Assembly: GCA_008632985.1 (NCBI GenBank)
Contig: QPGO01000298.1
Span: 1-64,000 of the forward strand
Source: Psammoneis japonica
Taxonomy: Eukaryota
Length of the DNA: 64,000 bases
Direction of reading: 5' to 3'
In this document: positions 5,966 through 56,329 of the stretch, piece by piece
How positions within the stretch are numbered: the first letter of the stretch is position 1
Layout: each line of letters opens with the position of its first letter
Translations under genes and position numbers: made by a program
The notes under the pieces: generated by a model
What the model saw: only the letters and a program-made list of their open reading frames with translations
What the model was told of the DNA's origin: nothing
Database searches by the model: none

Positions 5966-5969
5966 TTGT

Positions 5970-18975: not shown

Positions 18976-20090
18976 GAAAATGTGCCGTTCCGACGATGAT
19001 CCATTTCATCGGCACATCGACAGCCATGCCTTGCACCGTTCAGTGGTTGTTTGGATGCTTGCAGTTGAAGCGCACCATGGTGTTGGAATGGAGAAAATTG
19101 GCAAATGTTTGATTGATTTGTCCCTGTGACTGACCGAGTGCAAAATCATCACTTTTTCGACAGGTGCTGACATGTGTCGTTGATTGTCGTCATGCACTCC
19201 ACTCAGTCACACCCTGTGAGTTGTGACATGGAAGCTCGCGCACACTTTTCGTCATTGTCTTGCAATGGTGTTGTCTTTCTTGCAGCAAAACCATTGTTTC
19301 TGTCGTTTGCAAGAAATGGCTTTTCATTTTTTGCCGGAAATGTGCTCGCTCACAGATTGGGCTCTTCCTCGTTTTCACGCAGGTTCTCAGTCCATGTGAC
19401 ACCTTGGCATTGTTTGTTGGTGTCTGCATGAGGCGTGGTTGTTGGACCACAGGTCTGAGATTCTAGGCAAAGATGGTCTGGGGTCTCATTTTTGGATGGG
19501 AGTCGCTGTTTCATGACTCTTTTGGAGATTTCTGGACGGTCGTGTCGATTTCTTGCCGCTTGGGCAGATTTGAGTGCACTGGTGATGCTCTGACGGTGCC
19601 AATGAGTCAAGGAGGTGGGCTTGTTGGCTGACACTGTTGCTTGTTGTTGTTCAAACTCACTCAATGGGGCTTGCACTTTGTGCAGGATGTCGTCAGGATG
19701 CGACAGTGCGAGTGCCTCTAGAAATGGCATGAACAAACGCGGTTGCAGCAACAAGCACATGCACACTGGAGATGCAACAGAGTTTGCACTTTGCACAAAG
19801 GCAAAGTGGCGAGCACTCTTTGGCATGCCTCTCAGTGCAGAAAATGTGCCATTCCGATGATGATCTGTTTCATTGGCACATCAACAGCCATGCCTTGCGC
19901 CGTTCAGTGGTTGTTCGGATGCTCGCAGTTGAAGTGCACCATTGTGTTGGAATGGAGAAAATTGGCAAATGTTTGATTGATTTGTCCCCATGACTGACTG
20001 AGTGCAAAATCATCACTTTTTCGGCAGGTGCTGACATGTGTCATTGACTGTTGTCATGCACTCCGCTCCGTTGCACCCTGCAAGTCATCA
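18976..20090. repeat. About 250-bp direct repeat pair (18976-19226 and 19838-20090)
   Basis: The copies align end to end (aaaatgtgcc...gagaaaattggcaaatgtttgattgatttgtccc...caccctg). Differences are mostly TG/CA/CG exchanges. Confidence 0.9.
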
Positions 20091-23000: not shown

Positions 23001-23370
23001 GCGAGTTCCTGTCATGGGAACAACTTCGCCAACAGTGTCAGACAAGCTGCACAAGTGCTTGACTTCATTGCCGCTGTTGACGAAGGGAACAGGCTTTGTA
23101 AATGGGATGATGCAACCTTTGCAAAACATGAGGAACTGGTCAAAATGACCATGGACAAAGTCCGCAATGGCAGAGCTGGCATTGCAATGGAGGGCGAGCT
23201 TCGTTTGGTGAGCAAAAGCTCAGCCTTGGTGCCCGACTGCAAAAAAGTGCTTGGTGGGAGTGTGCTCAATGGTGGCAAGGACAATGGTGGCCATGGTGGG
23301 ATGGAAGGCAGCAAGGAGACGAAGAGGCTGAGTGCAAAAAGGCAAAACCGGGGTTTTGTGAGAGAGAAAT
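20090..23370 (-). mobile_element. Tyrosine-recombinase (DIRS/Ngaro-type) retroelement remnant: gag-like ORF, RNase H tail and YR; no RT core recognised
   Basis: YR motifs LQEWAQ, WHAQKNGQHGE and PHSLWVGAC...IQWLLCWRATAFMVCL (HSLRxGA...RW.S.AF..YL with R->W/C and Y->C). RNase-H-like KHWAGIDVQLVDGVS followed by FFLPSQELL. Long upstream ORF remnants at 21271-23129. Confidence 0.75.
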
Positions 23371-23399
23371 GAGTTTTTGGGTGATGATCTCATGGCAGA

Positions 23400-26300
23400 A
23401 TTGCACAGAAATTGTGCTGAAAACTCATGACAAGTCAGCAGAATCAACTTTGCACACAACAGATCAGAAGCAACAAGAAAAGACCAAAGATGTTGTCAAA
23501 ACAGGTTGACTTGTGGGGGCACCCAGACTCAACATGATTGGAGATGGGTGTGGAGCAGAGAGCAAAGCCAACAGACTGCACAGATGTTGTGCTTGTGTTT
23601 TGACACAACAGATCAAAATCAACAAGGTTTGATTGAACTGCAATCCATGTTGGCTGGCTTGCGGAGGAACATTGGGATCCAGCATGATCTCAGAGGCATC
23701 TGAGGTGGCAAGACAACAGCCCCAATCCAAACCAACAGCGAAGCCTGGCTGCAATGCTCCGCACTCCAATGTGTGGATTGGAGTCAACAAAGACAGAACA
23801 GGCATCATGTGCAATCAGCTGGCTTGCGGAGATTCTCTGGATCCAGCAAAATCATGTGATTTAAAGAGGTCAAATGTGGTGGCCAGAGATCAACAAATCA
23901 AAGTCAAGCCAAGGATGCAGTTTTTGCAATGCGTGGACAATTGTGTGAACATGACAATCAACAGAAAGGAATTTTTCAACATTGTTGGCCCATGTCGGGA
24001 CACCGCAACTGACCCCATTGCTGCCGATCATCTGCCAAGAACAATGCGGGGAACTGGGGCGGCCTGGCCTCTCGTCATCGTCTGTTGTCTGTCCATGCAC
24101 CTTGCACTCCACGCTTCCATCACGCGGTGACTCCGCCAAGAGCACGGCCGCCCACAAGATGTCCTCCCCTTGTGCTTGGCCCATGTGCCACACCTTGTGC
24201 CATCTTGGCACCGATGACATGGTTGATCCAAGAGACGATGAGAGACAACACAAGAACACGAGACCATGATGGCAGCTGAGATGACCAACCATGACAAGTG
24301 GCTTGCTCTCATCAAGGATCATGTTCAAGAAAAATTAGGAACAGACAACAAGTGGGAGGAGGAGCGTTGGACAGGCTTCATTGAGGAAGCACTGTGGTCC
24401 ATGCACGACAATGATGTCATTGACGGGGACATGATTGGCACCACCAAGGGCCTCATCAAGTGCGGAGCATGACCAAGAAGCACCTGGTTGCAATGGCCAG
24501 AAAGCCTCCCAATGATGAAAAATTGTCCAGAAAGCTCAGGTCAGAAGGCGTGCCTCTAGTTGCATGTGCTTTGATGTTCGAAAAACGCATCTCGGCAGAA
24601 CAGAATGGTGAGTTTTTGCAGTTGTGAGCACTTGTGTCCCGAAACTGGCATCATCAATGTTGTTTTGACTCTCTCTTGTTTCTGTCTCGTGTTGCACTTT
24701 TGCAGCCAGACAAAGAGGCAGAGAAGGATCAAGCAGATCTCCCCTCAAAATTCAGGAAAGCACTGATGCTGACCGCCGAAAACCTGGCTCTTTCTGCTTC
24801 GCCATGGCACCGTCCCCTCGCCCAGCAGGAAGCAATGTCACACAACAGGCATCAGCAGTTTTCGAAAAAGAAGTGAACTCACACCTTGACAGCATCATGC
24901 ACCATGCTTTGCCTGGAAGCACTGTCCCAGATTTCAGAAACCGCGAAGTTGATGATGACCATGCTCACCTTGAACTGGACTCGTTTGCACATGTGACAAG
25001 AGACATGCTTGAAGAAGGAAAACCTGCTGATGTGTTGGGACTTTTGCGTGTGTTGCCACCTGGCATCAAGAAGAAGAAAGCAGTGCAAGCCCCATGGAAC
25101 AACCTCAAGCAGTTGCCAGGTGCTGGGGCTGTGAACCTTCAGAGGGAAGCTCAGAAGTGCATCATTGGAGAGACTTGTGGTGGCAGCAATGAAAAGAAAA
25201 TCAGCAAAAAGTGGTTGAATTAGAAAAGAAGATCTCCCTGATGAGGCTTCGCACTGAGCAGTCATCGGGGCATGAGACAACTGATGCAACAAGCTTGGTT
25301 GGAGCTGGGACTCTGTCTTTCATGAGTCCAATGGGAACGCAGCGAGCGAAGCATGCAACACATTGCAAGCACCTGGTCATGGACGCAATTTCAAAAATGG
25401 TGACACCAAATCTTTGGCGTCTTTTGCAAGCCTGTGCTTTTACATCTGCGTCCTTTTGATGACAGAGGGTGCCAACACAACATCTCTGTGGGAGTTGTCG
25501 GTGGGCTTGGACACCCTGCACACAGAACAAATGGCACAGGGAGAGATGCAAATGGTGCAGGGAGAGATGATGCAGAGATGCTGACAATTTTGAAGAGTGT
25601 GGAAACACAGCAGGTTGCACCCAAACTTCCTTTGGTGGAGGAAGATGAAGAGAAAGAGCTCTTGAAGGGAAAACAGTGATGGGATTTGCGTTTGAAATGG
25701 TGGTGTGTTCTTCATGCCACAGAGAGGCGAGTCGCTTTTGCTGGGCTTTGTCAAAAGAAAGTGGGGAACAATGTGAAAGCACTTGTCAACACTGATCCAA
25801 AGTTGCTGTTGCTGTGTCTCTGTCTTCTGTTGCAGCAAATGATTCGCAGAATTGGTGTCATGCAACTCTTGTGGTGTGCAGCTGCAAGAAGAAACTGTCA
25901 GCCTGTTCGACACTGTGTGCAGAGTGGACGGACAACGGCCCCGTTGCAGACCATTTAAATGGATCCTGATCAATCCTGATCACTTCCTTTTGTCACCAGC
26001 ACTCACAACAGGTTGTGACCCTTTTGCTGCTTCCTTTGCCCATTGCCAAGTCTGCTCTTGCTGAGATTTTGTGAGCGGGCTTTTCTCCACCACCTGGAAT
26101 CGAGCCTGCAATCATGGACTTGCTTGACCCACTTTTTGGTTTGTTGAGTCCTCTTTTTTTGGACCATGGAATCTGCACCAGGCCTGCATCATTTTGACCA
26201 CACACCCTCATGAGCAACATTCACCATGGCCCACAAGAACAGCAAACCAGCCAATTTGACTGAGTTGGCTGACATGTCAGCTTTCTTTCTGTCCCCATCT

Positions 26301-27490
26301 CACCCAAATGAACCTGATGTGACACTCACACAAGTGCAGGAGCAACACAGCAGAAGCATGTCTCTGCATTGCAGCTGTTGCAATCTGCCATGCAAGGAGA
26401 TGAAGATTGCTTGTGAGGTTCAGATTGGTGTGCAAAAAGCAAATGATGACAACTGTGTTGAAGAGGCACCATGCCCCCTCACTGTTGGCTGTTGTCAGAA
26501 TGGAAAAGCCAACAAACAATGTCATGGAGCCCAAGCTGTTTGTTCCCAATCAAAGTTGCCTGCCCCCATGACAACTTGATCTTTTTTGTTGACATTGATG
26601 ACAAGGTCAAAATCATGCATGATGGCAGCCAGCAACTTTATTTTTCAAGGCATGCTGAACAAAAAGACAACAATGACTGGCACTGTCAAGTGTCAAGTGT
26701 GACAACATGGATGCAGCAGCATTTGCCATGGCTTTTGTGTGGGCTGAGAATCATCCCAACATGTGCTGGGACACCAACAATCTGAATGTGGTGCCAATGT
26801 CTGAGACATTCAAACATGACAAAACTTGGAAAATTCAACTTTCATTTAAATCGTCACTTGTTTTGTTCTGCGTTGCACTGCCATCTTCACTGCACAACCT
26901 TGGGTGCACTCACCTGTCAGTTGGTGTTTTTTTTTCATGCTTGTGTGGTTTCTCCACCCAACAATCTGCTGAACCACAACTGGCTTGCAAACTCCCCTGT
27001 CAGCTGGGTTTGCTTCTTTGTCAGATGTTCCCATCTACCCTCACCATCATTCAGCATGATTGCTTTGGGTCACAATGATGAGACAAATGTTCTTTGACCC
27101 ATTGCAGTTTGTGGCCCTGGTGTGAGGGTGCAAGGAAAGGCCAGAGCACAAAACTCTCATTCATTGTTGTGTGCTTTGGTCATTGGCCAGTGATTGCCAG
27201 TTGCTGGTGGGTTCAGAAATGATGCAGTCAATTGTGACAGGGAACTCAACATTTCTTTGGGTTGTCAAATGTTTGACCCATTGCAGACATTTTTTCACTC
27301 CAGGTGTGAAACGCATGTGTTGAGGTTGGATGTTTCATCTGTCCTTTTTACATCGCCGTGTGGTTTGCACAAGCAAATCTGATGGACTTTCCCCCAATTT
27401 TTGTTTCGCATTCCCTCAGATCTGTTTGTTGTAAACTGCCAGCCATTGACAATGCTGCTTGGAGAGCAGTGTGGGAAATGAAAAAAATCT
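23400..27490. other. Decayed, TpA/CpG-depleted coding-like sequence (plus-strand remnants at about 23630-25680); family not identified
   Basis: Protein-like stretches (DKWLALIKDHVQEKLG..., FEKEVNSHLDSIMHHALPG...) are broken by TGA stops and frameshifts. Confidence 0.4.
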
Positions 27491-27494
27491 TCAG

Positions 27495-29810
27495 GAGGCA
27501 ATTCTTTGGTGAGAAAATGATCGCAAACTGTGCATGACCAGTTTTGATGCCTTGCTGTGCTGCATTTTTTTGTTTCTTCCATCACATCTGACTGCCCTTG
27601 ACAAGTTCCTACATTCTTCATGGCACAAAGAGTTCACACCAAAAAAGAATGGTGTTCTAACTCCTTCATTTTTTACAAGAAAAATTGGGGGAGAACTGAC
27701 TTCACACATGCATTTTTTGCATGATCAGCTGTTTCAAAGATCAACTGATTTGTTGACTTTTGTGGGAGTCTTGAGTTTGTTGCGCATGCTGGGGTTGAAA
27801 TGGCAGCTTCAGAGCATGAAGAAAGTGGTGCAACTGAGTCTTTTGAAGAGCAGAAGCAGAGAAAACAATCAAATGTGACCAGCTCTGTTCCAACAGCTTC
27901 TCAATTCCCACGAACCCTAAAAATTGAGTGCAGAATCATCATTTTGTCAGTGTCAAAATTTGGTTTTTTGTTGCGACCCAAAAGCATCATCCACAACAAC
28001 TTGAAGCACATTCAATGCATCACAAGAAATGCACCAATGCATCATGAAGATTCACATTGTGGTTTGCAGCAAGCATCAAGTGAGCAGAGCTGAGAGTTGC
28101 AGAGACTCCTGTGTCACAATCTGATGAAGAGGAAAAGAGGCATCAAAAACACCATGAGTCAAAAGGCCACCCATGAGGCACAACAAACAGCAAAAATCAA
28201 AATTTCCATCACACCATCACATGGACCACAGTCCAGTTGATCCATTTTGGCACTCTTGCCTTTTCTTTGTCTTTACAGCCATTGTTGTGAGGATGGTCAA
28301 ATTCATGTTGGTGGTGCGGCACAATTGTTGGTGAGCGCAATTTGTCGTTGTTGACATGAAAAAACATGTCTTTGTTTTGGAGCTCAACTTTCTCATGTGT
28401 GTTTGGCACCAGGTGTGTGTGACATGTGGAAACACACAGAAAACCTTGTGATTTGTCCAAACGTTTCTCACCTGAGAGGAAAACACATTTGCAGTGTGCA
28501 GCCATGGTGGCACAACAAAGGCCAGAAAACAAAATTCTTGCTGCATGCGTCCATGCTGGCCAACATGGTGAGCTCGTGTGGCGCACGCACCTGTGGCACC
28601 ACACAGAGGCAACTCTTTGGTAAGAAGATGATTACAAACTGTGCGTGACCAGTTTTGATGCCTCCTTGAGCTGCTTTTTTTCTGTTTCTTCCATGCATCT
28701 GACTGCCCTTGACAAGTTCCTGCATTCTTCATGGCACAAAGAGTTCACACCAAAAAAGAATGCTGTTCCAACTCCTTTTTCACAATAAAAATTGGGGGGA
28801 AGAACTGACTCAACACATGCATTTTTTGCACAATCAGCTGTTTCAAAGATCAAGTGATTTGTTGACTTTTGTGGGAGTCTTGAGTTTGTTGCATGCCAGG
28901 GTTCTTGAAATGGCAGCTTCAAAGCATGAAGAAAGTGGAGCAATTGAGTCTTTTGAAAAGAAGAAGCAGAGACAACAATCAAATGTGACCAGGAGCTCTG
29001 TCTCAGAGTCAAATAAAACAGCTGCAACACTCAAACATTGCCAATGCTGTCATTCCACTTAACAAGATTGCACCTCTTGGACTCATCCAGCCAATTGCCA
29101 TGAACCCTCAAAATCAAGTGCAGAGTCATTCTTTTGTCAATGCCAAAATTTGTTTCTTTCTCGTGACCCAAAAGCATTGTCCACAACAACTTGAAGCACA
29201 TTCAGTGTGTCACAAGAAACACAGGCTGCCACCAATGCATCATGAAGATGTGCACTGTGGTTTGCAGCAAGCATCAAGTCAACAGAGCTGAGAGTTGCAA
29301 AGACTCCTGTGTTGCAATCTGACAAAGAGGAAAAGAGGCATCAAAAACATCATGAGTCAGAAGGCCATCCATGAGGCACAACAAATGGCAAAAATCAAAA
29401 TTTCAACCATGCCATCACATGGACCACAGTCTTGTTGATCTGTTTTGGCACAGTCACCTTTTCTTTGTCTTTGCAGCCATTGTTGTGAGGATGGTCAAAA
29501 GTTCATGACAGTGGTGCCATGTCACCATTTTTGGTGAGTGCAATTTGTGGTTTTGTTGACATGAGAAAACATGTCTTTGTTTTGGAGCTCAATTTTCTCA
29601 CATGTGTTTGGCACCAAATGTGTGTGTGACATGTAGAAACACATGGAAAACCTCATGATTTGTCCAAAAGTTTCTCACCTGGGAGGAAAACATTTGCAGT
29701 GTGTGGCTGTGGTGGCAAAACAAAAGGCCAGGAAACAAAATTTTTGCTGCACGCATCCACGCTGGCCAACATGGTGAGCTCGTGTGATGCCCACCTGTGG
29801 CACCACACAG
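27495..29810. repeat. Tandem duplication of a 1.1-1.2 kb unit (about 27495-28605 and 28606-29810)
   Basis: Shared blocks throughout, e.g. gactgcccttgacaagttcc, catggcacaaagagttcacacc, gaggaaaagaggcatcaaaa and gctggccaacatggtgagctcgtgtg. Confidence 0.9.
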
Positions 29811-31292
29811 CGCAGCATTGTTCATGTGCACCATGGAATCATGCATCTCAGCCCCACTGCAAGCACAAACCATGCAGTGGTTTGCAGCTCAAAATCACCA
29901 ATGCACATGATTGTTGCTCCAAACTGTCAATTTGGTCATGGCACACCAAAAATGACCCGACAGACAATGGCTGAAAATGCAGAAGGCAATGAGATGTCTG
30001 CAACAACAACTTTGTGCATCACTCAATGCAACAAAGTCTGTTTGACAACATGCATGATCAACTTCAGTGGTTTGCTGCATGTCTTTGCACTGCTGCCAGC
30101 TTGTTGATTGTCAGCCTCATTTTTGTGCTTCAATTTGGCATTTGACCCTCTGGCACAAATTGCACATGCAAAGGTCTGCACCAAAAGCCAAGACAGCTGA
30201 GTTTGGGTCTGCCCCTTTGGAGAGCACTGCAAACTTCTTCTGCTGTGTTGTCCTTGATGGCATTGAGAAGGACAAACCCAAACTCACATGTCTCTGTGCT
30301 GGTGGGAACTCCAACCTGCACAGCAAGGTCAGACTGCACTGCAGTTGCTTGAGTTGGCAATGACTCAAGTCTCAGCAGCTGCTGTCTGTGACTGTGCCTT
30401 GGACTTGAACTTCTCACTGGCAGCTGCAGTTGCATCAGTCATTGTCAGTTGATGCTGTTGCCACACCTGTTGCTGCGTCTCAGAAGATTCTTGCTTTGAT
30501 GGCATCAGCAAAGTCTGGCAATGTGCACTCAAGGAACCAAGGTGATTTTGTCTGAGGCTCTGCAGGAAATTGTCACACTTGTTGCCTGGCACGGGAATGG
30601 ATGCAAGCCCCTGTGACCGTTGCAACACCATCCATGCAGCCACATGCACTGTTTCCATGTGGGGCAAGCTCATGCATTTTTGACACAACTTTTGACACAA
30701 CTTCAAAATTTGTCACAACTCTCAAGGTGCACGTCATCTCTGGGCATGTGAAACATGTCTGTGAGGCTTCCAGTGCAAATTCTACACACGGCAAAAATGC
30801 AGTGTTGGTCCACCTGTTTTCAAGAGTTTGGCTGTGATCCAATTCTTCCACCGGGTCACGTGGAAAGAGTGGGTGGACTTCTTGTGTGACTTAGCAAAGA
30901 GGGGCATGGAGAGAAAACAACGCCAGATGAGTGTCGATTGCGTGTTCCCTTCCTGAGCACAAGATCAAGTCATGCAAACCTTCTTTCTCGTTTCTTGTCG
31001 CAGCATTTATTTCTCCATGAAAAGAAGAGTTAGCTCATGTTCGCTGAAAGAGCAACCCCGGTCAAAGTGCACGGTAGGTTCCTAGACCCAAGACGTAAGA
31101 CAAAATCTATAATTGTAATCCCCTAAACTTCTAAACGATGCTCTACCTAGAACTACCCCGATACTTATTTTTACGTCAATATTTTGTGAGTTCACAAAAC
31201 CACAGTCACCCGCAATTCTGCGATTCTCGAGCTCGTCTAGCTCGGTGAAGATGGTCTGCTTATCGTCACGCAAAAAAGTGAAGTTTCAATAT

Positions 31293-32345: not shown

Positions 32346-32628
32346 TCAAACGGAAGACGATTTGATCGGCATGGCCGCGATGTCTTTTGAGTTTTCTTCT
32401 TTCGCTCATGTGGAAAGAGCCGTTATTGTGTAATGATACAGTACATACAGCACTGTATGTACAGTACCGACAGGGACAATTGCGACGAACCAGCATTTGT
32501 ATCCTCAGTAACAAATACTAATAATATGAGTTAGCCGGGGTAGGGCTAGTTGGTCGCGCACGTTTGGGTTCGATGTGACCGTCCAACTAGCCATACCCTG
32601 CAGGAAAAGCTGTTGGTGGCGCGCGAGC

Positions 32629-34822
32629 GAGCCCCTGGCAGATTTATATCTTATTCATTATATTTTTATATAAATGTACTCACATTAATTTATGCATTTG
32701 TACACAAATGCTAATAGTAACAGGAAAAATCCTGAACCACATTCTCCCCTAAAACTCTAACCACCAAAAACAGAGGGTGCGGAAGCGCACTTTTTGGAAG
32801 ACTGCGCACACACCAAAACATCACGCGTTTTGATGACTCGACCATGACGACCTCCCGTTCTTCGTCCCCCACACCACCTGACGTGTCCCCGCCTGCCATG
32901 TCTGATGCGGCAGCCCCTCCTGCATTGGCCGGTGCCATTGCACCCGCTGTCATTGCCCAAACACAGCCGATTTGCCATCCGGAAGATTTGTGCTTCTGTT
33001 CGCCGGATCCGGTGCATGAAACACAAATGCAGCTCGGGGATTAGTCTGCTCCTGCAATTGCGTTCCCAGAGAAACTGGACTTTCATTTGTGCCATCGTGT
33101 TGTGGAAGGTGCTGATGAGCCGTCTCTCAAACGGTCTGGGGCGCAGCTCCCAAACCATGTCAAAAAACAAAAGAAACAATGAAGGCATGGGTTCCGTGAG
33201 CAGCAATGTGCTGGTTGACACTCCTTGCATGGGCATGGGCATGGGCATGGCAGAGGAGCATCTGGGAGGCATGGCAATGGCTTTCTCAGGATGATTCCTG
33301 AGCAGAACCTCCTCCATCTGGAGGTGATTGAGACTTGGTGTCAAGATGAACCGCAGCAACATGTGAAGGAGGATGCAGCCAATGGAATGCGGGCAGAGAA
33401 GGTGCCGGCATGCAAAGCAGCAGCACAGCTGTCGACATGGCACTGGTTTTGAAGGTCCAACAGTGACAAACACAGTGCGTGTTTGCCAAAAGCACGTTGC
33501 CACCTGCCTCCATTTTAGCAACTTACAAAAACAGCACAAAACTGTGAAAGCATGCCTGCCATCTAATTGTCACTCCACATCAGGTTTCTAATTTACAGAG
33601 AACTGCACAATGTGTCTGCACATTCTAAAGATTGGACTGCACTCAAGAGCTGGCCAAGAGGCACTGTTCACGTCCATTGATGTTGCAGGCCAGCAAAGGG
33701 CAGGCAAAGAGCCCACTGAATGCTTGTGCAACATGGGTGTTCACGCTTGCAATGTCTGAAAAATTGATTGCCATGTCTTCACCTGACGGGCTGCAAGTTT
33801 CCTTGAACCGAAACCAGAAAACCATGAACAAACATGGAAAGCACAAGAGCCACAACACCAACACTCGTCCATCAGCAGGCTGAGGTTGCATGGGTTTCCT
33901 GGTTTGCTGTCATCCATTGTGCTCCTTCCAAAGCAAAAACAGTGACAGTGTCAACAGTGCCTGCAGCAGTGAGAGCAGGATCAACAGTGTGGGCATGCCA
34001 GGGGACCGAAGTGCAGGTGCGGCATTGGAATTCATGATGGCATCTGTGGCAGGCGGTGGGGCGAGAATGAAAGAAGTGTGAGCCTTTGGCATTTCATTGT
34101 GGACATCATTGGCAAAAGCCAATGACAGCATCAGCAGCACCTGCGGCAATGAGGGTGGGAGCAACAGCATCGGGCATGCCAGGGGACCAAAATGCAGGCA
34201 CGGCATTGGAATGTGTGACAGCATCTGTGGCAGGCAGTGGGGGGAGAATGAAAGAAGTGTGAGTCACTGGCATTTCTTTGTGGACGTTGTTGGCAAAAGC
34301 CAATGACAGTGTCAACAGTGCCTGCGGCAGTGAGGGCAGGAGTGACAGTGTCGGGCATGCTGGGGGCCCGAAACGCAGGTGCGGCATTGGAATTCGTGAT
34401 GGTGTCTGTGGGAGGTGGTGGAGCGTTCAAACAACAGTGTGAGTTTGCAGCATCTTATTTTGCATGTGTCGCACCCACGAGAACCAGAACAATGACATTG
34501 CCTGTTGCGTCAGTGTCGTCATCAATGGTGTCAACAGGATCAGCGTCCTGGGAAGGCGATGGGGAAGAACCACGAGGCATCATCATGGTCGAGTCGTCAA
34601 AACACGTGTTTTTTGTGTGGAGAAAAAGAGCTGCCAAAAGTGCATTTCCGTGCCCTCGGTTTTTGGTAGTCAGAGTTTTGGGGGAGCTGTGGAGCAGGAA
34701 TTTTTGCTTGTGGAACACACACATGCATGTGGATGTTAACATTGAAACTCAACACACGGCGAAGCCATGCGCGCGCAACCACGAACACACACACAGCTCC
34801 CCTGCCACAGGGGTGGAGCCCA
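32629..34822. mobile_element. MULE-like insert with long subterminal inverted repeats and a probable 9-bp TSD
   Basis: Inverted repeat of about 140 bp at 32720-32870 / 34560-34706. Flanking 9-mers are cgcgcgagc (32620-32628) and tgtgcgagc (34823-34831); the uninterrupted copy has it once. No transposase motif recognised. Confidence 0.6.
33932..34425. repeat. About 181-bp tandem repeat, 2.7 copies
   Basis: Recurring gcaaaa...tgacag...cggcattggaa...tctgtgg...gagaatgaaagaagtgtgag. Confidence 0.9.
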
Positions 34823-35574
34823 TGTGCGAGCAGAGGCAACAAAGCAAAAAACACGGTGTGGGGCGTGGGTCAAACATTGCAACATGACACGGCAACAAGC
34901 AATGAGAAGAATCCCAACTAGACCCAGAAACACATTGCACAAATGTTGTCCAACAGGTTGATCTCATCTGGGAACACCAGCTGGCAGATGAGTGAACGGC
35001 GTTCGCGTTGCTCGCCATGGTGTTGTTGTGCGTTATCGTGAGGTGCGCACGAAGGACGGACATCTATTTTGCCCATGGTGACTCTGTTTTGGTGACAGTG
35101 GAGTTTTAGCTGTGTGCAATCTGGAGACAATTTGAGAAGCGCTTCGCGACAACCTTGTTCGGGACGTTAAATAGAAATTTTTTTACACAGATTTTAAACA
35201 TGTTTCGGGGTGTTCCTCACTTTTTTGAATTTGGGTGTGCTCTTTACAAGACCGCAGCAATGTTGATGACATGCAAAACCGTAAGAGACGAACATAAATT
35301 TATCTTTCATGTGCACCACGTAGACTGTGCACCGGCGGAAAATCCACCGCATGTCAACTCACTCAGCGCAATTCCATGTTCACTCTACTTGCACCTCACA
35401 CACGCACACACGCCGCACAGTCTAACAACCGCGCACACGTGCGCGAGATCATGCGCACAGAGCACATGCGTGCATGGATGTACAGGTGATGAAAAACGCG
35501 AAAATGAACTTGAGAGACTGGTGACGACGATGACTGCAGCATTGGCGCGTCCCTTTTCGGATGCAGAAATGCCA

Positions 35575-37079
35575 CAGGCTCAAGTTCAAGAAATGGGCTG
35601 GCATGTCGTCTCAACGGACAAATGATCAACACGCACATCTTAGGACAATTTTGTGTGTGCCAATTTGCAACCTTTTTGGCGAACATTTGGTCCATCATCT
35701 GTCCGTCAGATTGTGGATTTTCGTGACCCTTCATGCCTTTTTTACCACGACACAGCACGGCACAATGGAAGGTGGGGCATCGGTCACCGACGATTGCATC
35801 AGTCCCTTTCGATGCTCTGAAGGCTCGAACATGTCATCGCCATCTCATTTTTGCCATGGCCGACCTTGCCAAAAGTTGACAGGGTGTGCATGTTTCCACG
35901 TGATTCAGCACTCGTCATTTGAGTTTCCATTTTTCTCACACCAACAACATCATCAACCGTCGTCATTGTTCGCGCAGCCATGGCATCCAGGGAAAAAGAG
36001 AGCGGCACTGCAGGAAAGAAAAAAGTGGCTGTCCTGTTAAAAAAAGAGAGTTGATGATGCTCTCATTCTTTTGACAGCACACATCTTGGTGAGCTCTGAT
36101 GGGAAACGGCTGATGTTTGCTGCAGAATGGCGGCATTCGAGGTGGAACAACCAAAAGTGGCATGTTGGATGCAATTCAGAAGGGATGCATTGAGTCTGTT
36201 GATGCTTGCATTGCAAAACACACCATGAAGGCATGTGACCAGGTGGATGCCGTTGATGGACGAGAAACTCCTGACGCCCACGAGCCTCAAAATGACTCAA
36301 CACCATGCCGTGGTTGGGTGGAGAGAGGCACAAGCTGGCAATGTTGATGTCTGTTCAAGACAACTTGGAGGAAATGAAAGAGCAGTCACGTGTTTTCATG
36401 GAAATGGCAAGTCCAGCAGCTTTCAGTTTTTTTGTCAGCAGCGCAGTTGGCAAAATTTGCATCCATTCACAGCTTCATGTCCTCACAATTCTGTGGTGTT
36501 TGACACCCACTCTCAACATTGGGTGGAACATCATCACATTCTTTGAAATCATCCTCTTCTTCAACATCTCAAAACGACTCAGGTTGCTGTTCCTGCTCTA
36601 GCTAGATTGGAGGAGGAGAAAAAACAAAATTCTCATGATGCACGCAATTTCAATGCTGATGTCCCTGCTTGTGCGCACAAACCACCTGGTGGTTCGTGCA
36701 CATGTTTGGATGCACACGAACCACCTGTGAACAAATCTGAGCACTGTAAATCGGAGGTGGGATCTGCATGTTTGTGCCACTTGAAACTTGTCCACCAAGC
36801 CGGCAGTCATGTGCCGGCCATCCTGAAAAATGTTTTGTGTCAGAGAAAGAGTTCGTCAGGGCCGGCGAACAACACCCCCCCACGATGCAACTAGCACAAA
36901 ATCTACGTAAATGCACAGAAACCAGCACATGGCTTCTGTGCAAATTAGAGCTTGTGAAAAGCAAGCAGGGATGTGCACGCAGAAAAGACAGCCAAAAAGT
37001 GCACAGGCCAACCGCACTCACAGAATGGGATTCACGTGGTGGCCTTCACAACAGCCCATTTCTTGAACTTGAGCGCCTG
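35575..37079. mobile_element. About 1.5-kb TIR DNA element, possibly Tc1/mariner-like
   Basis: Left TIR caggctcaagttcaagaaatgggctg (35575-35600) is the reverse complement of cagcccatttcttgaacttgagcgcctg (37052-37079, 2-nt insertion). Flanks are CA on the left and TG on the right. Confidence 0.65.
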
Positions 37080-37809
37080 TGGAAACGCTGTGCTGCACCT
37101 CTCAAAGTGGCCTCCCGACACACCGCCATGGCATTCTTTTCTTTTTTGGCCCCTTTTCTCCATTGCCATCATCGTCCTCCTTGAACCCATGCACCAGCCA
37201 CAAACTTCCAATGGGCAACTCTCCACAGCAGAACCACAAAAAATGCACCAACCACAACAAACCACAGTGCCCCATTGGTTGCCCCTGAGCATGACAAGCA
37301 TGAAGTGCCAGCCATGTGCGAGGGTCATGAGTCCCAAAAAACAGGGTTTGGGCTGATTTCTGGTGCAAAACCCATGTAGAAAATTCATGCAGAATGTCTT
37401 GTTCACATCGTGCTTTTCCCGTGCTTTGCAAAAAACAGGCCACGACCACAAGGAATTGATTTCAGTCACAACAGTTGACACTTTGTGCACTCACTTTTTG
37501 ACACAAACATGACAATGTCCGCCGTTTGGCAAAATTCCATCATTGGAAAATGTTCACCGTGGCACACCCACGTTGAAGTGTTGATTGAATTTTTCTGAAA
37601 ATGGAGTTTTGTGAAGTGTTCATGCACAGAATCATGTCACTTGTGTAAAAGTCGTTGTGCAAAATGCCAATGGTTTCAGGGAAATGATTCCTTGAGGTGT
37701 CGGTGGAGCAGAGAAGTGCAGCAGAAGCACGAGACAAAAATTGGCCCAAACCCCGATTTTTGTGATTTTTGCTGTGTGCAAAAATTCTGCATAATTTTTG
37801 CACCAGTGC

Positions 37810-40800
37810 ACATGGCTTGTCCACCCTGGAGCCTTGGTGAGGTCATTGCTGGCATCAAAAACACCAGGAACATGTCCAGCAACAATGTGCCCAGCAGCAT
37901 CACTTCCAGTCTTGGATCGCAAAATGCTGGGTGTCAATGTGCCCCGATTGCTTGGTGGGAACTCAGTTGTTGACAATCTTGATGGTGGGCTCGTTGTCCA
38001 CATGCATTGGTGCAGAGTCCTGCTGTGCAAAACCCAACTCAAGAGGAATTGAACAAATGCAAAGAACTGTGTCTTGCTTGACCATGATGCCCACAGTGTG
38101 GCAAAACTTGGCCTCCACACAGAACTCATTGGCATCACTGTCTGAGTCTTGCACTGACACACTGGTGTGAGCATCCACCCAAGAGCCTTGGTGAGGACAT
38201 TGCTTGGATCAACAATGCCAGGAACATGTCCAGCAATGAGAGTGTGCCCAGCACCCCTCCAGTCTTAGATGGCAAAAAATGCTGGATGTCAATGTGCCCC
38301 GATTGCTTGGTGCAAACTCGGTTGTTGAAAATCTTGATGGTGGACTCATTGTCCATCATGTGCACTGGTGAGAGTCCTTCTGTGCAAAACCCAAGAACTC
38401 GTGAGGAATGGAACAAACACAAAGAACCATCTTGGCCATGATGTCGCAGCATGACAAAACTTGACCTCTGCATGACTCATTGTCATCAAAGTCTGAGTCT
38501 TGCACACCAGCACACTGCTGATGCACCAGCTGACATGCACACAGATCAAGTCACAGAGCAGTGGTTGCACAGGTCATTGGCATGAGCAGAAGGCAACCAA
38601 TTGAAAAAAACTCTCTCAATCTTGGGAAGTTCATGAAGACATGGATCCTCCTCAAGCTGCTCATCATGCAGGCAAGTGGGCAAGCAGGCAAAGTGCCATC
38701 CTGTGTGTTTCTTGCAGACAATGTCCCAACACTTGGTCTGATGAAAATGCTTGGCCCACACCCTTCAAAGCAGAGCAACAGACAATGGCCAGAGCAGATG
38801 CAAACTTGGGCAGTGTCACAATGGTGTGCCCAATGTCCAAATGGCAAATGACACATGCACGCAACAATTCACTGAGTGGGGTGCAGCAACCAAAACTGGC
38901 CTCTCTGCAGCAAGGTTGTCAAACTTGCAGTGCCTTCATGAGGGTCAACTCCCTTGCACAACTCATTTGCAGAGGAGTTCACAGACAAAGGAGAAGCCGA
39001 CACGTTCCAGGTCTAGGTGGGACCTCGCACCACTGAACTGTGACATCGACAGTTTTTTGAATCGCGTCGCATGTCGCGCACGTACATTTCTACGTGATTT
39101 TGGCGAAATTTTGCATCATTTTGTGGCACAATTGTCAGGCGATCCATTCAACAACTTTTTTAACATTTTTTTCTTCTGCGCCATTCTCGAGTGTCTTGGG
39201 TGGGCGCACCACAGTTCTCGGCCCGTTCATTTTCTACGTGGCCTGGCACAACCCAAATCTGTGTAGATTCAGCACATTTTGCCCTGCAGAACAGTTTTTG
39301 GGAGTGTTTTCTGGCTCTCGACGCAAAACAACACGCAAAATAACACGGACAATGGCGTTTCGCCGATTTCAAAAATGCGGTTGTTTCTGAGGTGCTTTGT
39401 GGTGTACTCTCAACGGAGTGTCTTGCGTCATGGCATGAGGCATGTGACAAGCTCGAGAGTGCACAGGTTCATGTGGGCAGCTGATGGTGAAAATTCTCAC
39501 TGAAGGTTCGCGTTGACAGCGTCGCTTCTGTTGCATCACGACTGACCTCATGTGTCACCATTCATGCTGTGTGTTTCGTTGAGGCTTTGTGTGTTGATGC
39601 CCGTTTGACTTGCATGTGTTGTCTCTTTCTACATTGTTCTTTTGTTCTGCAGGGTCTCCGTCGTCGCAAGGTGTCCCAGAAACACTTTTCCTCGTCAAGA
39701 ATGTCAATTCTGCAATGCGATGGCCATGGCAATTCCAAAACGAGGCAAAGTCACAGACACAGCATCAGGCTGACTTCACAACAAATGTGGTGATTTGGGG
39801 CTGTGGTGTCAAAAGCTGGACAAGCTCTCAAGAGCTCAGATCCGTCACAGTGCATTTTTGACAATGGCTCTCCCCGCCTCCACTTGGTGATGCGGAGTTT
39901 GATTCGGCAGACCAGTGCATCATGGCTGTTCTGAAGGTTTAGATTGCTTCTTTTGGCTGCAAGGTGGTTCACAAGCTGGAAATGTGTGGCTCACTTGCCC
40001 AATTTGTTGGCCAATGCAACAAACTTAGAGGGTGACAGCCGGGGCAGATGATCATTTTGTCAAGTCTAAAAAGCAGCTAAAGATTGTATGCCAACAAGAA
40101 GAACCAGCTTTAAAATTTGTCATGGGGGTGTAGACTTCACTTCATTGGGGCATCACATCTCCATTGTTGTTCTAGAGTGAACATTGGCTGGTGTTGTTGC
40201 CGCCAACGTGCGAGTTCGCCTTGACAATCGGTTGCACTGTATTCTGAGATTTTGGAATAAAAAACAACTTTTGTTTGCATTGATCCATTATAAGAGAAAG
40301 CTCACTGGCTTCCCCTGGCCCTTTTGGAGCAATCGGGCAAGTGAAAGAGGAGCTGCAGAAAGATGCGGACGATGCCATTTTGATGCGTTGTCATCAGGTG
40401 GTGTCGTCGTGAGGTCGCGTGATGGAGTGCCATGCTTTCTGTTTTGTGCTGCGTCTGTGTGGGAATGTACGTGATTGGCTCTCTGGCAGTTTCTGCGTAA
40501 AAAGTGCACCAGGCGATCTCTGGACCGCCCTCTTGAGAATGGCGCAGGGCAGGCGCATTGTCCAAAACTTTGAGTGTGAACAGAGACACATGTGCTACAA
40601 ACTTGGCCGTTTGTTTTATGTCAAAGACAAACACATCCATTGACCAGAGTGCGAACTGCAGAGCTTGCGCGCAGAATTCTACGGGGCAAATGTCACAAAA
40701 AGTCCCACCTGGGACTGGAACCCATCAGCCATGCCATCCACTGCATCTTCATCTTTGGGCAATCTTGTCCCAGCCATGGGAAACAAACATGCAATCCAGA

Positions 40801-41300
40801 TGTGCATGATGACATGCAATCAAAACAGAATCGTCACATTGATGGATGTCTGCCCCATCAAACACATTGCATGGAACAAAGTTTTTTAAATGGAGAGGTG
40901 AAAATTTGGACAAGTGCTGAAGAGCCTTGCCAATCACTTTGAAAATCTTGGTTGCACGCAACTCATTTGGGCATGCAACAGAGAAATCATCAACCTGGTG
41001 CAAAAGAAACTCCTGTTGTGCATCCATTGTGCCGTGCAATTTTTGAAGGCGTGGCACACTTCTCGACTGGGCTGATGAGAGCAGGGCTTCAGAGCCACTG
41101 AACAATGATCATGTTCTGCTTCTTCATCATGAACCAAAACAACTGCTTTTGGGTTTGGCCTCTCTTGAACAGTGCTGTGAACTTCTTCTGCTGTGCCATG
41201 CTCAACAGCATCGTCGAGGGGCTGCAACCTCAAATCCAGCACGCGCCACTCGGGAGAGATTGGCCCTGCTGGAAGTGACTCCAAAATGAAGCAAGGTCAG
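37810..41300 (-). mobile_element. Ty1/copia (CoDi-type) pol remnant: RT + duplicated RNase H, split by a TIR insertion
   Basis: FLLHQVDDFSVAC (LLRQVDDF), HGWDK, CHLDIGHTIVTLPKFASA (CRPDIGYA..LSKF), ELGFAQQDSAPMHVDNEPTIKIVNN, PTKQSGHID..HFAIQDW and ASNDLTKAPGW. The RNase H segment occurs twice (37821-38174 and 38175-38530). Confidence 0.88.
39003..40722. mobile_element. About 1.7-kb non-autonomous TIR element inserted in the copia RT
   Basis: gttccaggtctaggtgggacc (39004-39024) is an inverted match to agtcccacctgggactggaac (40701-40721). Copia RT sequence continues on both sides. Confidence 0.75.
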
Positions 41301-41632
41301 ACTGTGTTGCCATTGCTTGCATTGTCAACAACAGTCTTGGGGCCTCGAGTGGCTGCTGTCAACCTTCGACTTGCAGCTGCATCCACCATCCATCGCCATC
41401 GATCATCGCTGTCGTTTCAGATGGTTGCTTGGGCATTGCGCATCCAAGGTGATTTTATCAGACGCCCTGACACAAAAATGGCGGGAAAAATTCAAAACCG
41501 AAAATTCGTGCGCCTGTCATAGTATGCGGCTTCGTATGTAGGAATTATACCAATGCATACACAACTGAAAACCCTCACATCACTCGGGCAGACGGTCGTC
41601 AGTAACAACAACACAGCTCGCAGATTTGCACC

Positions 41633-44494: not shown

Positions 44495-45469
44495 GGTGAT
44501 GTCTAGACTCTGTTCTAGGTTTTCGGGCAAAGAAATGAGAATAAGACTTGCGAACTATTAGTTATCATCTCTCTTTCTTATTATCACGTACCTATTCGAG
44601 ACTTGTGATCGATAAAAATGATGTGAGAATTCAATTTTGTGTGAAAAAAAATAAACGGTGAAATGTGCAGGGTTCAAATAATGACTTCGTACTCGTACAC
44701 AGAACACCCGATTTGAGTTTTTCGAATTTGGTGCAGAGAACAATTTCACGAATGTAATGACCTAGTCGACACTGCAATTCTGGATTTTGTGTATGCCGAG
44801 ATCACAATCGAGGTGGGTCTTACCGGTACCGGTTTGTACCTCGCAATCATCTCAAGAATGCAGGGAAACGATGATGACTTTGTGAGCGACAATTTTGTCT
44901 TGGAAATGACCCAAGACTTGCAAAACATCAATTTGGCGCCACGTAAGATCCACGTTGGGTATCTCTATGTCGACAAATGTCCAAAATGTCGCAACGGTGA
45001 CCCCAATTTTAACGTGAAAACACACATGACTGTTTACGCCGTAGGTTACCACGGCAGACAATACGAGGTAATGATCTCACGGATGACTCTCTTAACGGAG
45101 TCACTGAATAACTCCATGACCGAGCGGTGCTTCTTCCTCTTCTCTGTTCATTCTTCCCACCATAACAGTGGTTTTTCGTTTCTCGTTAAAGTGGAGCATT
45201 CTGAGTTCATGGCATGGGCAGGGAAATCACAGGTGCCACCCGAGGAGGGCTGGGCAGGGGCTGGCGTGCCAGAGAGAGCAGCTGGTGGGGAACTGCTTTT
45301 TCCTGGGTCTGGGTGACCACCACAGGAAATTTTGCAGTCTGCATGGCATGCACAGGGGGGGGGGGGTGCTGTGGTGAACTTTGACAAGCTTGACCACACA
45401 GCTTGCACAGACAGAGAGATGGAGGGAGGGGGAGCCATGCGGCGCATCAAGAGAGACAGCAAGCAAGCA

Positions 45470-45470
<1 letters not shown>

Positions 45471-45514
<44 letters not shown>
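45471..45514. repeat. (GA)n microsatellite; shorter ones at about 45857, 48500 and 61557
   Basis: Direct observation. Confidence 0.95.
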
Positions 45515-45515
<1 letters not shown>

Positions 45516-45889
45516 TGGAGATGGCTGGACTGTGTGAGACATTGCATTAAAAAAACAATTCATTGAATCCACTCACCTGCCCTGGTGCACCAGCCGGATC
45601 TTTTCAAAACACCAGAACCTCAACCACACTTTGGCGCGACAGCAGCCTGCTGCTCCTGATCAAGCCACCACAAAAGTCTCACTTCTGACTTTGGCTCAAT
45701 GTTGTTGTGCCTGCTGATTGTCAAATGGTTGGATGAATGCCCAAACTGGTGGCTCCTGCCTCAGCCACTTTCACAATTGTTTGTCACATTTGAAAGAGAG
45801 AGTCGGTTGTGCAGATTGTGCTCATTCGCCGATTTTGTTCATTCATTCATTTAAAAGAGAGAGAGAGAGAGAGAGTTGAAAGGCAACAA

Positions 45890-48390
45890 TGGACACTGCA
45901 GCTGAGACCAGCACCCCAACATGCACACACTTTGATTCAACCATGGCAAACCCTGCCAACCAGCAACCAAGGACACCCCTTGCCGCTGCCACCCAGCACA
46001 CCAGGGGCAACATCGTGTTGCTCCTCCAACCCAAGACAGCATCCATCCTTGAGAAGCTGGTGCTCCAACACCTCCAAATGCAAGCCAAGGCCCACAACAA
46101 AGCCTTTCATGTCCAGCCAATGGTTGACAATGAGAAGTTTGTCCCACACTCAGCCAGAATCAATTTCGAACTTCAAACGTCAAAAAAGCAGCCAAACAGA
46201 GCCAGGAGTTCACAGTGCTGCAAGAGGAAACAATGGCCCTCATTGACCAAACCCAACAAGCCTTCAAAAAGCAAGCTGTCACAGCCACCAAGATTGAATG
46301 TAAAATCCTTTGAGCAGAGACTTTGGAGTCCTGTGTGAAAACAATTTGACTCTTGCTGTGACCGACTGCATCGCCACACCTGTTGACACCACAGCAGTCA
46401 CCCCACTTGACCGCTGCCATGAGACCCTGCTCAAGCAAATCAAGTTTGCAACCTCAACACCTTCACAATAAAAAGTGCAAGACCACAAACAGCATCACAA
46501 CCCTGCCAGCACTGCTGATTGCTCCTGCTGCAAGACCACCCAGCACACAAGAAGACATGGGAACCATTGCCTTTCTTTTCCCAATGAAGCAGCCAGCACC
46601 AACACCAGCACCATGACCATCTGCATCCCAACAAAAGGTCAAAACTGAGCTCAATAAATTCTTTCAAGCACAAAACTGTGTCTTTGTTTCCCCTGGGGAT
46701 GCATGCCTTGAAGCCAAGAAACAACATGACATCAGCCTCCAAATGAAAAAATGGACACGGAGCCCTGCAAGACAGAAGCAACCAAAAACACCAACATGGA
46801 AAGTGATGGACTGCCAGCCATTGACCCCACAACCCTCAAAGGACTTGCTTGTGAGGAAACTGAAAAGAACACAAAAAAGGTTTCCCAACAGGTCAACTTG
46901 CTCTTGCAATGCAACATGCATCAAATCCATGAAACAACAGCTGTCAAACAAGCAGAGGGGCCAAACCACTGCAGTCAGCACCTCAGCACAACAGGAAAAA
47001 AGGCAAAGGTGCCTTGTTGGATCACTTGAGGGAAAACGCCCTTTGCATGACCAAAAAGCCAGCGATTCTAACAACAACACCGCTGGTGCCAACAGAAACA
47101 ATTGCTGTTGCTTCAAATCAAAGCAGCTGTCAAAAAAGAAGCAGCAGGGCTCCGTCAACAATTGGAGCAGGCATTGACATCCACTCAGCTCCAAATCTGC
47201 CATGTGTGCAGATTTGTTGCAGACTCCATCAAGACACTTTGACACAATGCCTGCTTGCACCTCAGCAACATGCCTGCATGGCACTGTTTTGGCAGACTGT
47301 CACATCTTGCCTTCCAAGATTGCAATTCTGCCCTCCAACCACACAAAAATCTGCAATCCCTTCTGGGTCTCAGCCTCAAGTTGTTCCTGCACCTGGTGCA
47401 CAAACAACGACTCAAACAACTCCTTGGCAACTGGCTCAGAAAGCACAAAGCCACCCCAACTGCCATGGAATGCAAGCACCTGACACACCACATCAACACT
47501 GATGATGCACTGTTCCCCATCTTCTGCCTTGCTTTGAAGATGCACAAGCCTCTGCCACTCTGATCCTGCCCCTGATCATCTCTGCAAGTGGCAGCCTCTT
47601 CTGTGGCCTTGACATCTGGGCAGCAGATGACAAACTGCAAAAAGTTTTGTGCAAGCAACCACCCTGTTTTAAAAGTTCATTGGACCTTAAGAATGAACTA
47701 GTCCAGATGCTGGCACCACCAGATTGCCTCCTCTTTGCCTCTGATGCCAAATCCTGCCACTTGAACATCCCAGCAAACAAAGCACTTCAAAAGATTGCAA
47801 CCCATCTGCAACAAAATGAGGTTGCTGACTGCCAAGACATGCCAGTCAAAGCTCTCATTGAAGCCTTCAAACTTGCAATGAACATCAGTGTCTTTGCCTT
47901 CAGCAACACAACATGGCACCAACTGAATGGCACCACACAATGGGCACACGGCACACCACCCGCCAATCAGCTGCGTGCCACACTCTGTGCTGCTGCGCAC
48001 TGCATGAAGCTGCATTCCTGGAGGAGTTTGGCACCAACCTTGTCTTTTGCAGGAGATTCATTGACAATGTCTTTGGCATTTGGAAAACCACTGAACCTGT
48101 GATGGATGACACCCGCCTGGACTGCATTTGCCTCCAGCCAGAACAAAAACAACTGTGATGTCAATTGGGTCATGAGTCTAAGAGCTCACCAAGTGAACTT
48201 CATGAATCTCACAACAACACTCCAAGCTCTCACCTGTGCACTGCTTTCTACAAAAAAGAATGGAGTCAGCACCTGCATGTCCCGTCACACTCAGCTCACC
48301 CACCTGGAGCACTCACCAGCCCAATCATTCCAGCCAGCAGCCAGTGCAAAAGCAAAGATGAAGTTGCTTCACTTTTGCCTGCTTGCTTGA
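45890..48390 (+). mobile_element. Penelope-like retroelement remnant (N-terminal region + RT)
   Basis: LLGLSLK, PLIISASGS, DDKLQK, CFKSSLDL, LLFASDAKSCHLNIP (LFTxDAxSMYTNI), VFAFSNTTWHQLNGT..GTPPA, LVFCRRFIDNVFGIW (YRRFIDD), VNFMNLT and HLHVPSHSAHPPG (YLYIPxHSAHPPG). No GIY-YIG domain seen. Confidence 0.85.
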
Positions 48391-51300: not shown

Positions 51301-51454
51301 CTGTTGCTGAGTGTGGCTTTGTTTGGGAGGGCTGGTCAGAGTTTTCAAAGCTGGGTGAAAAAAGTCCGGGAAGAATCAGATGATGAAGTTTGTGATGGCT
51401 GCACTCAAAGCCGAGTGAATCAATGCAGTTGCTGCATGAGCTGGTTGTTTTGGG

Positions 51455-56066: not shown

Positions 56067-56329
56067 TAAGGCTATGGACATACTATTTCGTTTTTACTCC
56101 TTAATGTTTATACGTGACCGAAGAATAATATTGAAAAATCAAAAAATCAAAAAATCAAAAAATTCGGGATTCGCAATCCCCTTGCTGCGATGACGATGAC
56201 TGGCGAAACGAGAAGCCTCCTGCTGTCACACGACATGAGCCACTCAACGCAACAATTTATCAAACAACGACCTTCGATCAATGGAACAAAGGTCGAACCT
56301 CCTCCAACTACAAAAGGGATGATCGCAAA

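Follow-up and report, generated by a model that had tools for sequence, protein, structure and literature searches.

We analyzed a window of 64,000 bases, positions 1 to 64,000 of contig QPGO01000298.1 from Psammoneis japonica (assembly GCA_008632985.1), which contains two copies, here named A and B, of a dispersed ~0.66-kb repeat that differ at the dinucleotide TA. Their comparison, together with that of the surrounding DNA, makes it very likely that a regional and directional process has turned TpA into CpA or TpG across the gene-poor blocks of the window that bear repeats and retroelements, copy A being partly converted and copy B keeping the original state, with the deamination of adenine as the most likely chemistry. 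By its protein relatives, the window comes from the nuclear genome of a diatom-like stramenopile.

Copies A and B and the polarity of the change

The two copies and the segment that separates their aligned parts are:

34826..35449, plus strand: copy A, converted copy of the dispersed ~0.66-kb repeat, 15 TA present
55411..56067, plus strand: copy B, unconverted full unit, 45 TA in 55509-56067, within a TA-normal, gene-bearing block
35121..35186, plus strand: indel of 66 bases, found in A but not in B, that separates the blastn pieces

The sequence-only reading of this DNA had described A as a copy of a TA-rich original in which TA was converted to TG or CA. Its six aligned examples and both of the CG-rich stretches that it quoted are present in the sequence as quoted, and the pair is homologous, although the homology begins 3–4 bases further in than had been placed and the repeat unit is longer (55411-56067). 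By blastn, the homology falls into two pieces (34826-35120/55509-55801 at 77% and 35187-35449/55802-56067 at 85%); a MAFFT alignment was also made.

Tabulation of the pairwise alignment by dinucleotide gave a strongly asymmetric result. The 41 ungapped TAs of B correspond in A to 13 CA, 10 TG, 8 TA, and 10 other dinucleotides, while none of the 73 CA or TG of B (39 and 34, respectively) is a TA in A. The 23 changes from TA to CA or TG against 0 in the reverse direction are significant by a sign test (p = 2.4e-7), as is the comparison of 23/41 with 0/73 by Fisher's test (p = 2.8e-13). TA was changed at 33 of the 41 sites (80%), 23 of these 33 having become CA or TG, where mismatches outside any TA or CG affect 39 of 385 positions (10.1%); per dinucleotide, TA changed ~8 times more than the background expectation for this pair. 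The CA and TG outcomes (13:10) are interleaved along A, with 11 runs for 12.3 ± 2.3 expected, and a strand-run test on the pair for processive one-strand events was negative. Both the conversion of A from a TA-bearing original and the strand-symmetric action proposed from the sequence are borne out by these counts, the former also by the polarity tests described below.

As an alignment of two copies gives no polarity by itself, outgroup proteins and the internal logic of the sequences were used. The features concerned are:

5168..6037, minus strand: reverse-transcriptase relic, 0 Tyr in 290 residues, YxDD box reading CVDD
51483..51764, minus strand: converted, frameshifted fragment with 0 TA, a paralogue of the gene at 52314-53387
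52314..53387, minus strand: intact open reading frame of 357 codons (P0096) with 3 homologues; its positions 52648-52915 are the TA-bearing partner of the fragment

Tyrosine is the only residue whose codons always contain TA, and a change of TA to CA gives His, where a change to TG gives Cys. The reverse-transcriptase relic matches RVT_1 below the Pfam cut-off, and phmmer confirms it with 258 relatives (best 5e-39). It was aligned with those of the top 40 listed homologues that had a BLASTP E-value of at most 1e-5. Tyr is carried by half or more of the aligned homologues at four columns, and there the relic reads H, H, C, and G. The control residues are largely kept (F 7/11, L 20/33, P 10/11, and C 3/3), and the median Tyr content of 150 listed homologous proteins is 2.3%. 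The relic shows ordinary decay too.

Two further observations concern the relic. The G-C skew of the plus strand reaches +0.51 over it (window 3001-7000), and Pro (13.8%) and Ser (12.8%) are more abundant in its translation than in its homologues (7.0 and 7.8%), which may indicate an additional one-strand T>C bias beyond TpA or may be the native composition of the element. Four of its relatives (P0141, P0148, P0164, and P0198) contain 0% Tyr, and P0141, P0148, and P0198 have raised His and Cys; these proteins may be translations of similarly converted copies of the element, in this or other organisms.

The second pair consists of the fragment at 51483-51764, situated inside a depleted block, and its partner at 52648-52915, which are 77% identical. 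The 8 aligned TAs of the gene copy read 5 CA, 2 TG, and 1 CG in the fragment, and its 20 CGs read 8 TG, 5 CA, and 5 CT, with 2 kept. The fragment can only be translated with frame shifts and contains a stop, whereas P0096 is open throughout and has three homologues (E 7e-50 to 1e-34, 33–39% identity). A site that is aromatic in P0096 and its homologues (Y/F/Y/Y) is Cys in the converted fragment. A gain of TA in this intact and conserved gene by a process like repeat-induced point mutation (RIP) lacks credibility. No Pfam domain was found in P0096; its family shares invariant Cys and Trp residues and a CPG motif, and is an uncharacterised one, probably restricted to diatoms.

Duplications with both copies inside TA-depleted DNA were compared in the same manner. 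In five such pairs, 41 of 54 isolated adjacent double mismatches oppose CA to TG. Such oppositions are expected when one ancestral TA (or CG) is resolved independently in each copy, and a process making TA from CA in DNA free of TA cannot be their source. Tandem or nearby duplications of 80–91% identity lie within the depleted blocks at 27495-29810, 33933-34425, and 37820-38505, and at 18974-19216 with 19838-20080; their differences are mostly transitions, with many CA/TG doublets.

The wider family of the repeat gives a similar picture. The summed word depth of the bin of B is 7022, against ~75–100 for unique DNA, so the family would number ~70–100 copies as an order of magnitude, and read contigs of the family enter differing flanks at 56043-56069. 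Among the differences listed, site 55881-2 is TA in B and at ~60% of the depth, CA in 10 contigs (40% of the depth), and TG in A. A contig of run X2 covering 55839-56067 represents a third copy of the family with 23 differences, and only 1 of the 12 that are listed is TA>CA. The composition of B itself is ordinary: its TA/AT ratio of 0.83–0.96 and its (CA+TG)/(AC+GT) ratio of ~1.0 are the values of the surrounding gene-bearing DNA, and its density of CA+TG is likewise at the level of such DNA. With all four independent polarity tests agreeing, TA is supported as the ancestral state.

Two exact-pattern scans, in which the repeat's conserved core was sought among metagenome contigs, returned 0 stretches. 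We also considered whether the ~0.66-kb unit is a solo long terminal repeat; inspection of its ends showed B without a flanking target duplication, and the family was left unclassified. To the right of copy B, where the following depleted block has its edge, a 7-base unit is repeated in a short run (56140-56170).

TA-depleted blocks, their borders, and flank preference

The loss of TA extends far beyond copy A. Over the whole window, the odds ratio of TA is 0.27, and that of both CA and TG is 1.51. A two-state model on TA occurrence over the 64,000 bases called 8 depleted blocks, which cover 40,405 bases (63%), and 8 normal segments:

1..702: depleted block, 4.3 TA/kb; truncated by the window start
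3786..9692: depleted block, 3.0 TA/kb, CG 27.9/kb; contains the reverse-transcriptase relic
18505..31007: depleted block, 2.7 TA/kb, CG 17.4/kb; internal duplications at 27495-29810 and 18974-20080
32759..35033: depleted block, 4.8 TA/kb; takes in the initial 208 bases of copy A
35482..40025: depleted block, 5.3 TA/kb; very high-copy repeat at ~38769-39435
40292..41519: depleted block, 5.7 TA/kb
45188..51880: depleted block, 3.3 TA/kb, CG 11.4/kb
56130..62682: least complete depleted block, 7.5 TA/kb, CG 39.1/kb

The blocks measure 0.7–12.5 kb and hold 2.7–7.5 TA/kb, against 25.8–54.6 in the other segments. Their pooled dinucleotide contents are:

TA: 4.2 per kb in depleted blocks, 41.2 per kb in normal segments
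CG: 24.5 per kb in depleted blocks, 58.0 per kb in normal segments
CA: 105.9 per kb in depleted blocks, 75.3 per kb in normal segments
TG: 107.2 per kb in depleted blocks, 71.8 per kb in normal segments

TA in the depleted blocks thus stands at 10% of its normal level, while CA and TG together rise from 147.1 to 213.1 per kb. The combined loss of TA and CG (70.5/kb) about equals the gain of CA and TG (66.0/kb), and the G+C content remains about unchanged (0.48–0.53 in the depleted blocks).

The sequence-only reading had noted that most CGs are unchanged, which is correct within copy A (23 of the 33 CGs of B kept, 7 turned into CA or TG) but does not extend to the rest of the blocks, where CG is eroded as tabulated above. 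This erosion is uneven, CG largely surviving in copy A and in block 3786-9692, and over all blocks the log-loss of TA is 2.28 against 0.86 for CG (ratio ~2.7). Methylated CpG decays to TpG and CpA, and the CG loss in the blocks is probably such ordinary decay: the products and the blocks are the same, and 13 of 20 CGs became TG or CA in the second pair. This decay cannot, however, remove TA, is slower and uneven in this window, and would account for the CG part only.

Because the left 105 bases of the repeat unit (55411-55514) match 32524-32628 at 94%, the copy at the A locus is one element split by 2197 bases:

32524..32628, plus strand: left arm of the copy at the A locus, matching 55411-55514 at 94%; 6/6 TA kept, unconverted
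32629..34825: 2.2-kb insertion (2197 bases) splitting the A-locus copy, flanked by a 6-base target duplication; first ~130 bases TA-rich, remainder TA-depleted

The two arms of this element differ in TA retention, the left one keeping 6 of 6 and the right one (copy A) 8 of 41. The block edge at 32759 lies ~130 bases inside the inserted DNA, away from the element border. Copy A itself is converted in part: its first 208 bases belong to the depleted block, and the two-state model scores 35034-35481 as TA-normal (31 TA/kb). An inverted repeat of 74% identity (32725-32869/34561-34704) lies near both ends of the 2.2-kb insertion and may represent the terminal inverted repeats of the inserted element.

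The conversion follows position rather than repetition. B belongs to the family with a depth of 7022 and yet is unconverted, while 48774-51441 is at single-copy depth (73–79) and yet is converted. As B is untouched, single-copy DNA is converted, and the arms of one element differ, the process tracks location and not copy number.

The survival of TA in the blocks depends on its flanks. By 5′ neighbour on each strand, it is 0.032 after A, 0.069 after G, 0.126 after C, and 0.195 after T (chi-square 99, p = 2.6e-21). ATAT occurs 0 times in depleted DNA against 48 in normal DNA and ATAC/GTAT 2 against 138, where TTAA is found 29 and 37 times. The survival in mixed contexts is roughly predicted by multiplying the survivals of the palindromic ones (for CTAA, 0.25 for a predicted 0.24), as would be the case with a separate attack on each strand. 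In copy A, the TAs that were kept tend only weakly to be in slower contexts than those that were converted. The tetranucleotide gains (ACAA +4.72 versus ATGA +2.64, and GCAA +5.31 versus GTGA +2.71) would place the change at the base pair beside the fast neighbour (R-T-A>R-C-A, or T-A-Y>T-G-Y as read on the opposite strand).

Among 14 long frames scanned, the 5 with Pfam domains above the cut-off (RING+PA, DAGAT, helicase-associated HA, HMG-box, and PEMT) are all in TA-normal DNA. The DAGAT frame has 95 relatives, the best at 61–67% identity. Those with a species name belong to diatoms (Epithemia at 50%, and also Entomoneis, Nitzschia, Thalassiosira, and Skeletonema), save for a few weak Trichinella and Durusdinium matches at the bottom of the list. 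In the blocks, the Pfam scan of 192 open frames of at least 90 codons left 189 without a match, RVT_1 being the only credible one, and found no viral domains. DUF3678 (E 0.0084) and DUF2325 (E 0.0016, 19 bits for a cut-off of 33.6) were dismissed as chance matches. Many long frames are seen on both strands of the blocks because TAA and TAG were lost, and annotators should treat open frames in such blocks with caution, as artefacts of stop-codon loss.

The high-copy repeat occupies 38769-39435 and 40103-40769, with summed word depths of 52,489 and 19,393, respectively, compared to ~75–100 for unique DNA. Several contigs join 39159-39196 straight to 40531-40536, which means that the intervening 1.34–1.37 kb are an insertion in this copy. 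A TA-normal patch (40026-40291) lies inside this insertion.

Known systems and rival explanations

The same signature was described in mutation-accumulation lines of Bigelowiella natans, a chlorarachniophyte (Mettrop et al., bioRxiv 10.64898/2026.01.13.699255). According to this preprint, 231 of 302 new mutations fell in two integrated viral regions, 230 of these 231 were A>G/T>C, all at TpA, and the de novo rate was ~1000 times the background across generations; its authors propose an ADAT2-like adenine deaminase, without proof (bioRxiv 10.64898/2026.01.13.699255). On the sequence level, the window shares this TpA-hypermutation signature, with A>G/T>C confined to TpA, giving TpG or CpA by strand, and restricted to regions that include single-copy DNA, and it extends a very recently described phenomenon to a diatom.

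Several differences from the Bigelowiella data are to be considered. The lineage is a diatom-like stramenopile here and a rhizarian there. Saturation also differs: TA is at 10% of normal over 63% of the 64-kb window, whereas the main Bigelowiella region has 3.3% TpA for 6.0% elsewhere, with 124 clusters as small runs. The targets in the window look like old retroelement and repeat DNA, with a host-gene fragment also converted, no viral genes having been found, where those of Bigelowiella are integrated viral DNA. CpG is eroded in the window, while G/C>A/T is not reported as raised in Bigelowiella. Finally, the window holds a historical footprint and the Bigelowiella lines de novo mutations. 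For diatoms, neither TA-depleted blocks nor hypermutation at TpA were found to be reported in the literature searched, a search whose coverage left most subscription journals outside.

Fungal RIP is the closest classical analogue, yet it fails on direction and on duplication dependence. In ascomycete fungi, RIP changes CpA to TpA, makes DNA AT-rich, needs duplication, mutates both copies, and relies on homologues of the RID/DIM-2-type cytosine methyltransferases. Like the process seen here, it consists of dinucleotide-specific transitions that wreck mobile DNA in place and leave compositionally distinct blocks beside normal genes. Its direction, however, is opposite, the G+C content of the blocks staying at 0.48–0.53, and the duplication trigger does not apply here, multi-copy B being untouched while DNA at single-copy depth is converted. 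Animal deaminases, which edit to disable invaders, offer a second comparison: APOBEC3 converts C to U on complementary DNA and ADAR converts A to I on double-stranded RNA, both acting on replication intermediates or RNA and leaving one-strand signatures inside the element. According to the Bigelowiella preprint, ADAR shares the 5′ U/T preference. Unlike with these enzymes, both strands of chromosomal DNA are changed in the window, and the changes run across element borders.

In the process that we favour, either base pair of TpA changes from A:T to G:C; it acts on DNA in place, on each strand independently, and through many separate events. Its most likely chemistry would be an enzymatic deamination of the adenine following T, the resulting inosine being read as G. 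The TA rule fits the activity of tRNA adenosine deaminases on an A that follows U. The deamination may be directed to silent chromatin, possibly as a defence against mobile or foreign DNA.

An enzymatic modification of the thymine of TpA could leave the same footprint, if a thymine that was, for instance, hydroxylated (5-hydroxymethyluracil or base J pathways) mispaired with G or were misrepaired, giving T to C at R-T-A. As T>C on one strand amounts to A>G on its complement, the two chemistries are indistinguishable in sequence data, and a flank effect exerted by the base directly 5′ of T fits either of them. Thymine modification at TpA occurs in other protists. Nevertheless, we consider this route unlikely: the window offers no evidence of it, modified thymines are not, to our knowledge, strongly mutagenic, and the authors of the sole experimental precedent favour adenine deamination, also without proof.

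The presence of a reverse-transcriptase relic within a depleted block could suggest that editing occurred at the RNA level, an ADAR-like enzyme hyper-editing A to I at the UAs of retroelement transcripts before their reverse transcription and insertion; the Bigelowiella preprint also states that ADAR favours a 5′ U. Such single-strand editing would give only TG or only CA in each copy, in conflict with the interleaved 13 CA and 10 TG of copy A, and would not make the arms of one split element differ (6/6 versus 8/41 TA kept). Moreover, a pseudogene fragment of a host gene, which is no retroelement, was converted, and the blocks extend across nested insertions and single-copy DNA. We hold this explanation to be very improbable.

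Still less credit can be given to the reverse direction, in which A would be the original and B would have gained its TAs through C turning into T at CpA/TpG, as in fungal RIP. It has in its favour that two copies alone give no polarity and that B belongs to a multi-copy family, the type of target of RIP. The dinucleotide ratios of B are, however, normal, and it is the TA-free state that is abnormal (0–7 TA per kb). The outgroup proteins show Tyr lost and not gained, in the second pair, the partner that bears TA is an intact and conserved open reading frame, and both the CA/TG oppositions (41/54) and the TA, CA, and TG trio at 55881-2 require an ancestral TA or CG.

A near-total, block-wise conversion looks artificial, and a modified base at TpA that was misread regionally, or errors of polishing, could be suspected. 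Assembly or polishing error is excluded by contigs built independently from the reads of the public run X1, in which 92% of the sampled words of 46500-56400 are present. One contig of 3272 bases matches 48299-51570 with 0 differences at a depth of 73, another of 1825 bases matches 45883-47682 with 1 difference, and the depth of depleted DNA in X1 matches that of genes (52–86). A misread modified T would give all-CA reads on one strand and all-TG reads on the other, unlike the fixed and interleaved pattern observed; in addition, duplicates inside the blocks have diverged by CA/TG exchanges, and the reverse-transcriptase relic shows ordinary decay. An artefact is thus highly implausible, even if the sole matching run may come from the source sample.

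At 41117-41118, the window reads TG, where the sole X1 contig covering it reads CA (depth 57.3 of 57.3). The contig may represent a second haplotype, or a copy nearly identical to this one, in which the shared ancestral dinucleotide was resolved oppositely, and the difference may hint at recent conversion.

Lastly, that no special process is involved, the blocks being foreign DNA with an intrinsic avoidance of TA or DNA from which selection removed it, recalls the under-representation of TA in many genomes and viruses but can practically be dismissed, since homologous sites are TA outside the blocks and CA or TG inside them in two pairs and since selection cannot push non-coding relics to 0 TA/kb while a neighbouring non-coding repeat keeps ~80/kb.

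Some results nonetheless weigh against a TpA-directed deamination of foreign or mobile DNA as we propose it. Most of the block DNA may or may not be foreign or mobile: it holds one reverse-transcriptase relic and multi-copy repeats, 189 of the 192 open frames have no Pfam match, two further frames match weakly and below the cut-off, and a fragment of a host gene is converted as well. The CG loss of the blocks has no counterpart in the Bigelowiella report. The flank model is a weak predictor of which TAs of A are kept or converted (p = 0.036, and 0.06 with the second pair), and on the base of the pair that is attacked the two repeat pairs agree with the tetranucleotide gains by only 14 to 9, with 7 ties. 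The numbers behind the polarity tests are small (4 Tyr columns, and a single aromatic site that is conserved), the CA/TG oppositions have no power to separate an ancestral TA from an ancestral CG, and the comparison across the repeat family covers one site (55881-2). Finally, X1, as the sole run that matches, may be the source sample of the window, so that it is not an independent biological replication.

Implications for diatom genomes

Tentatively, and with more doubt than confidence, these data could be read as the trace of a chromatin-guided DNA editing defence in diatoms, which would deaminate adenine in 5′-TA (fastest in ATA/TAT) on both strands of silent domains rich in mobile elements, would be independent of copy number, and would have come near completion here. 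As the same signature is active in a rhizarian, such a system would, if real, be old and widespread among stramenopiles, alveolates, and rhizarians (SAR). It would be an A:T>G:C counterpart of RIP and a natural editor of DNA adenine in a double-strand context.

If this is true, TpA-directed A:T>G:C hypermutation would be a process of genome defence or genome shaping in diatoms, a group of major ecological importance, and would reach beyond one chlorarachniophyte. It would be strong enough to strip the greater part of a 64-kb region of almost all its TA, and its saturated targets, together with a repeat family of ~70–100 copies, would allow its rates, flank rules, and timing to be read. Old mobile elements would become unrecognisable, as Tyr turns into His or Cys, while TAA and TAG stops vanish and spurious long frames arise. 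The finding would also indicate that nature has an enzyme for editing the adenine of chromosomal DNA, a matter of interest to the biochemistry of base editing.

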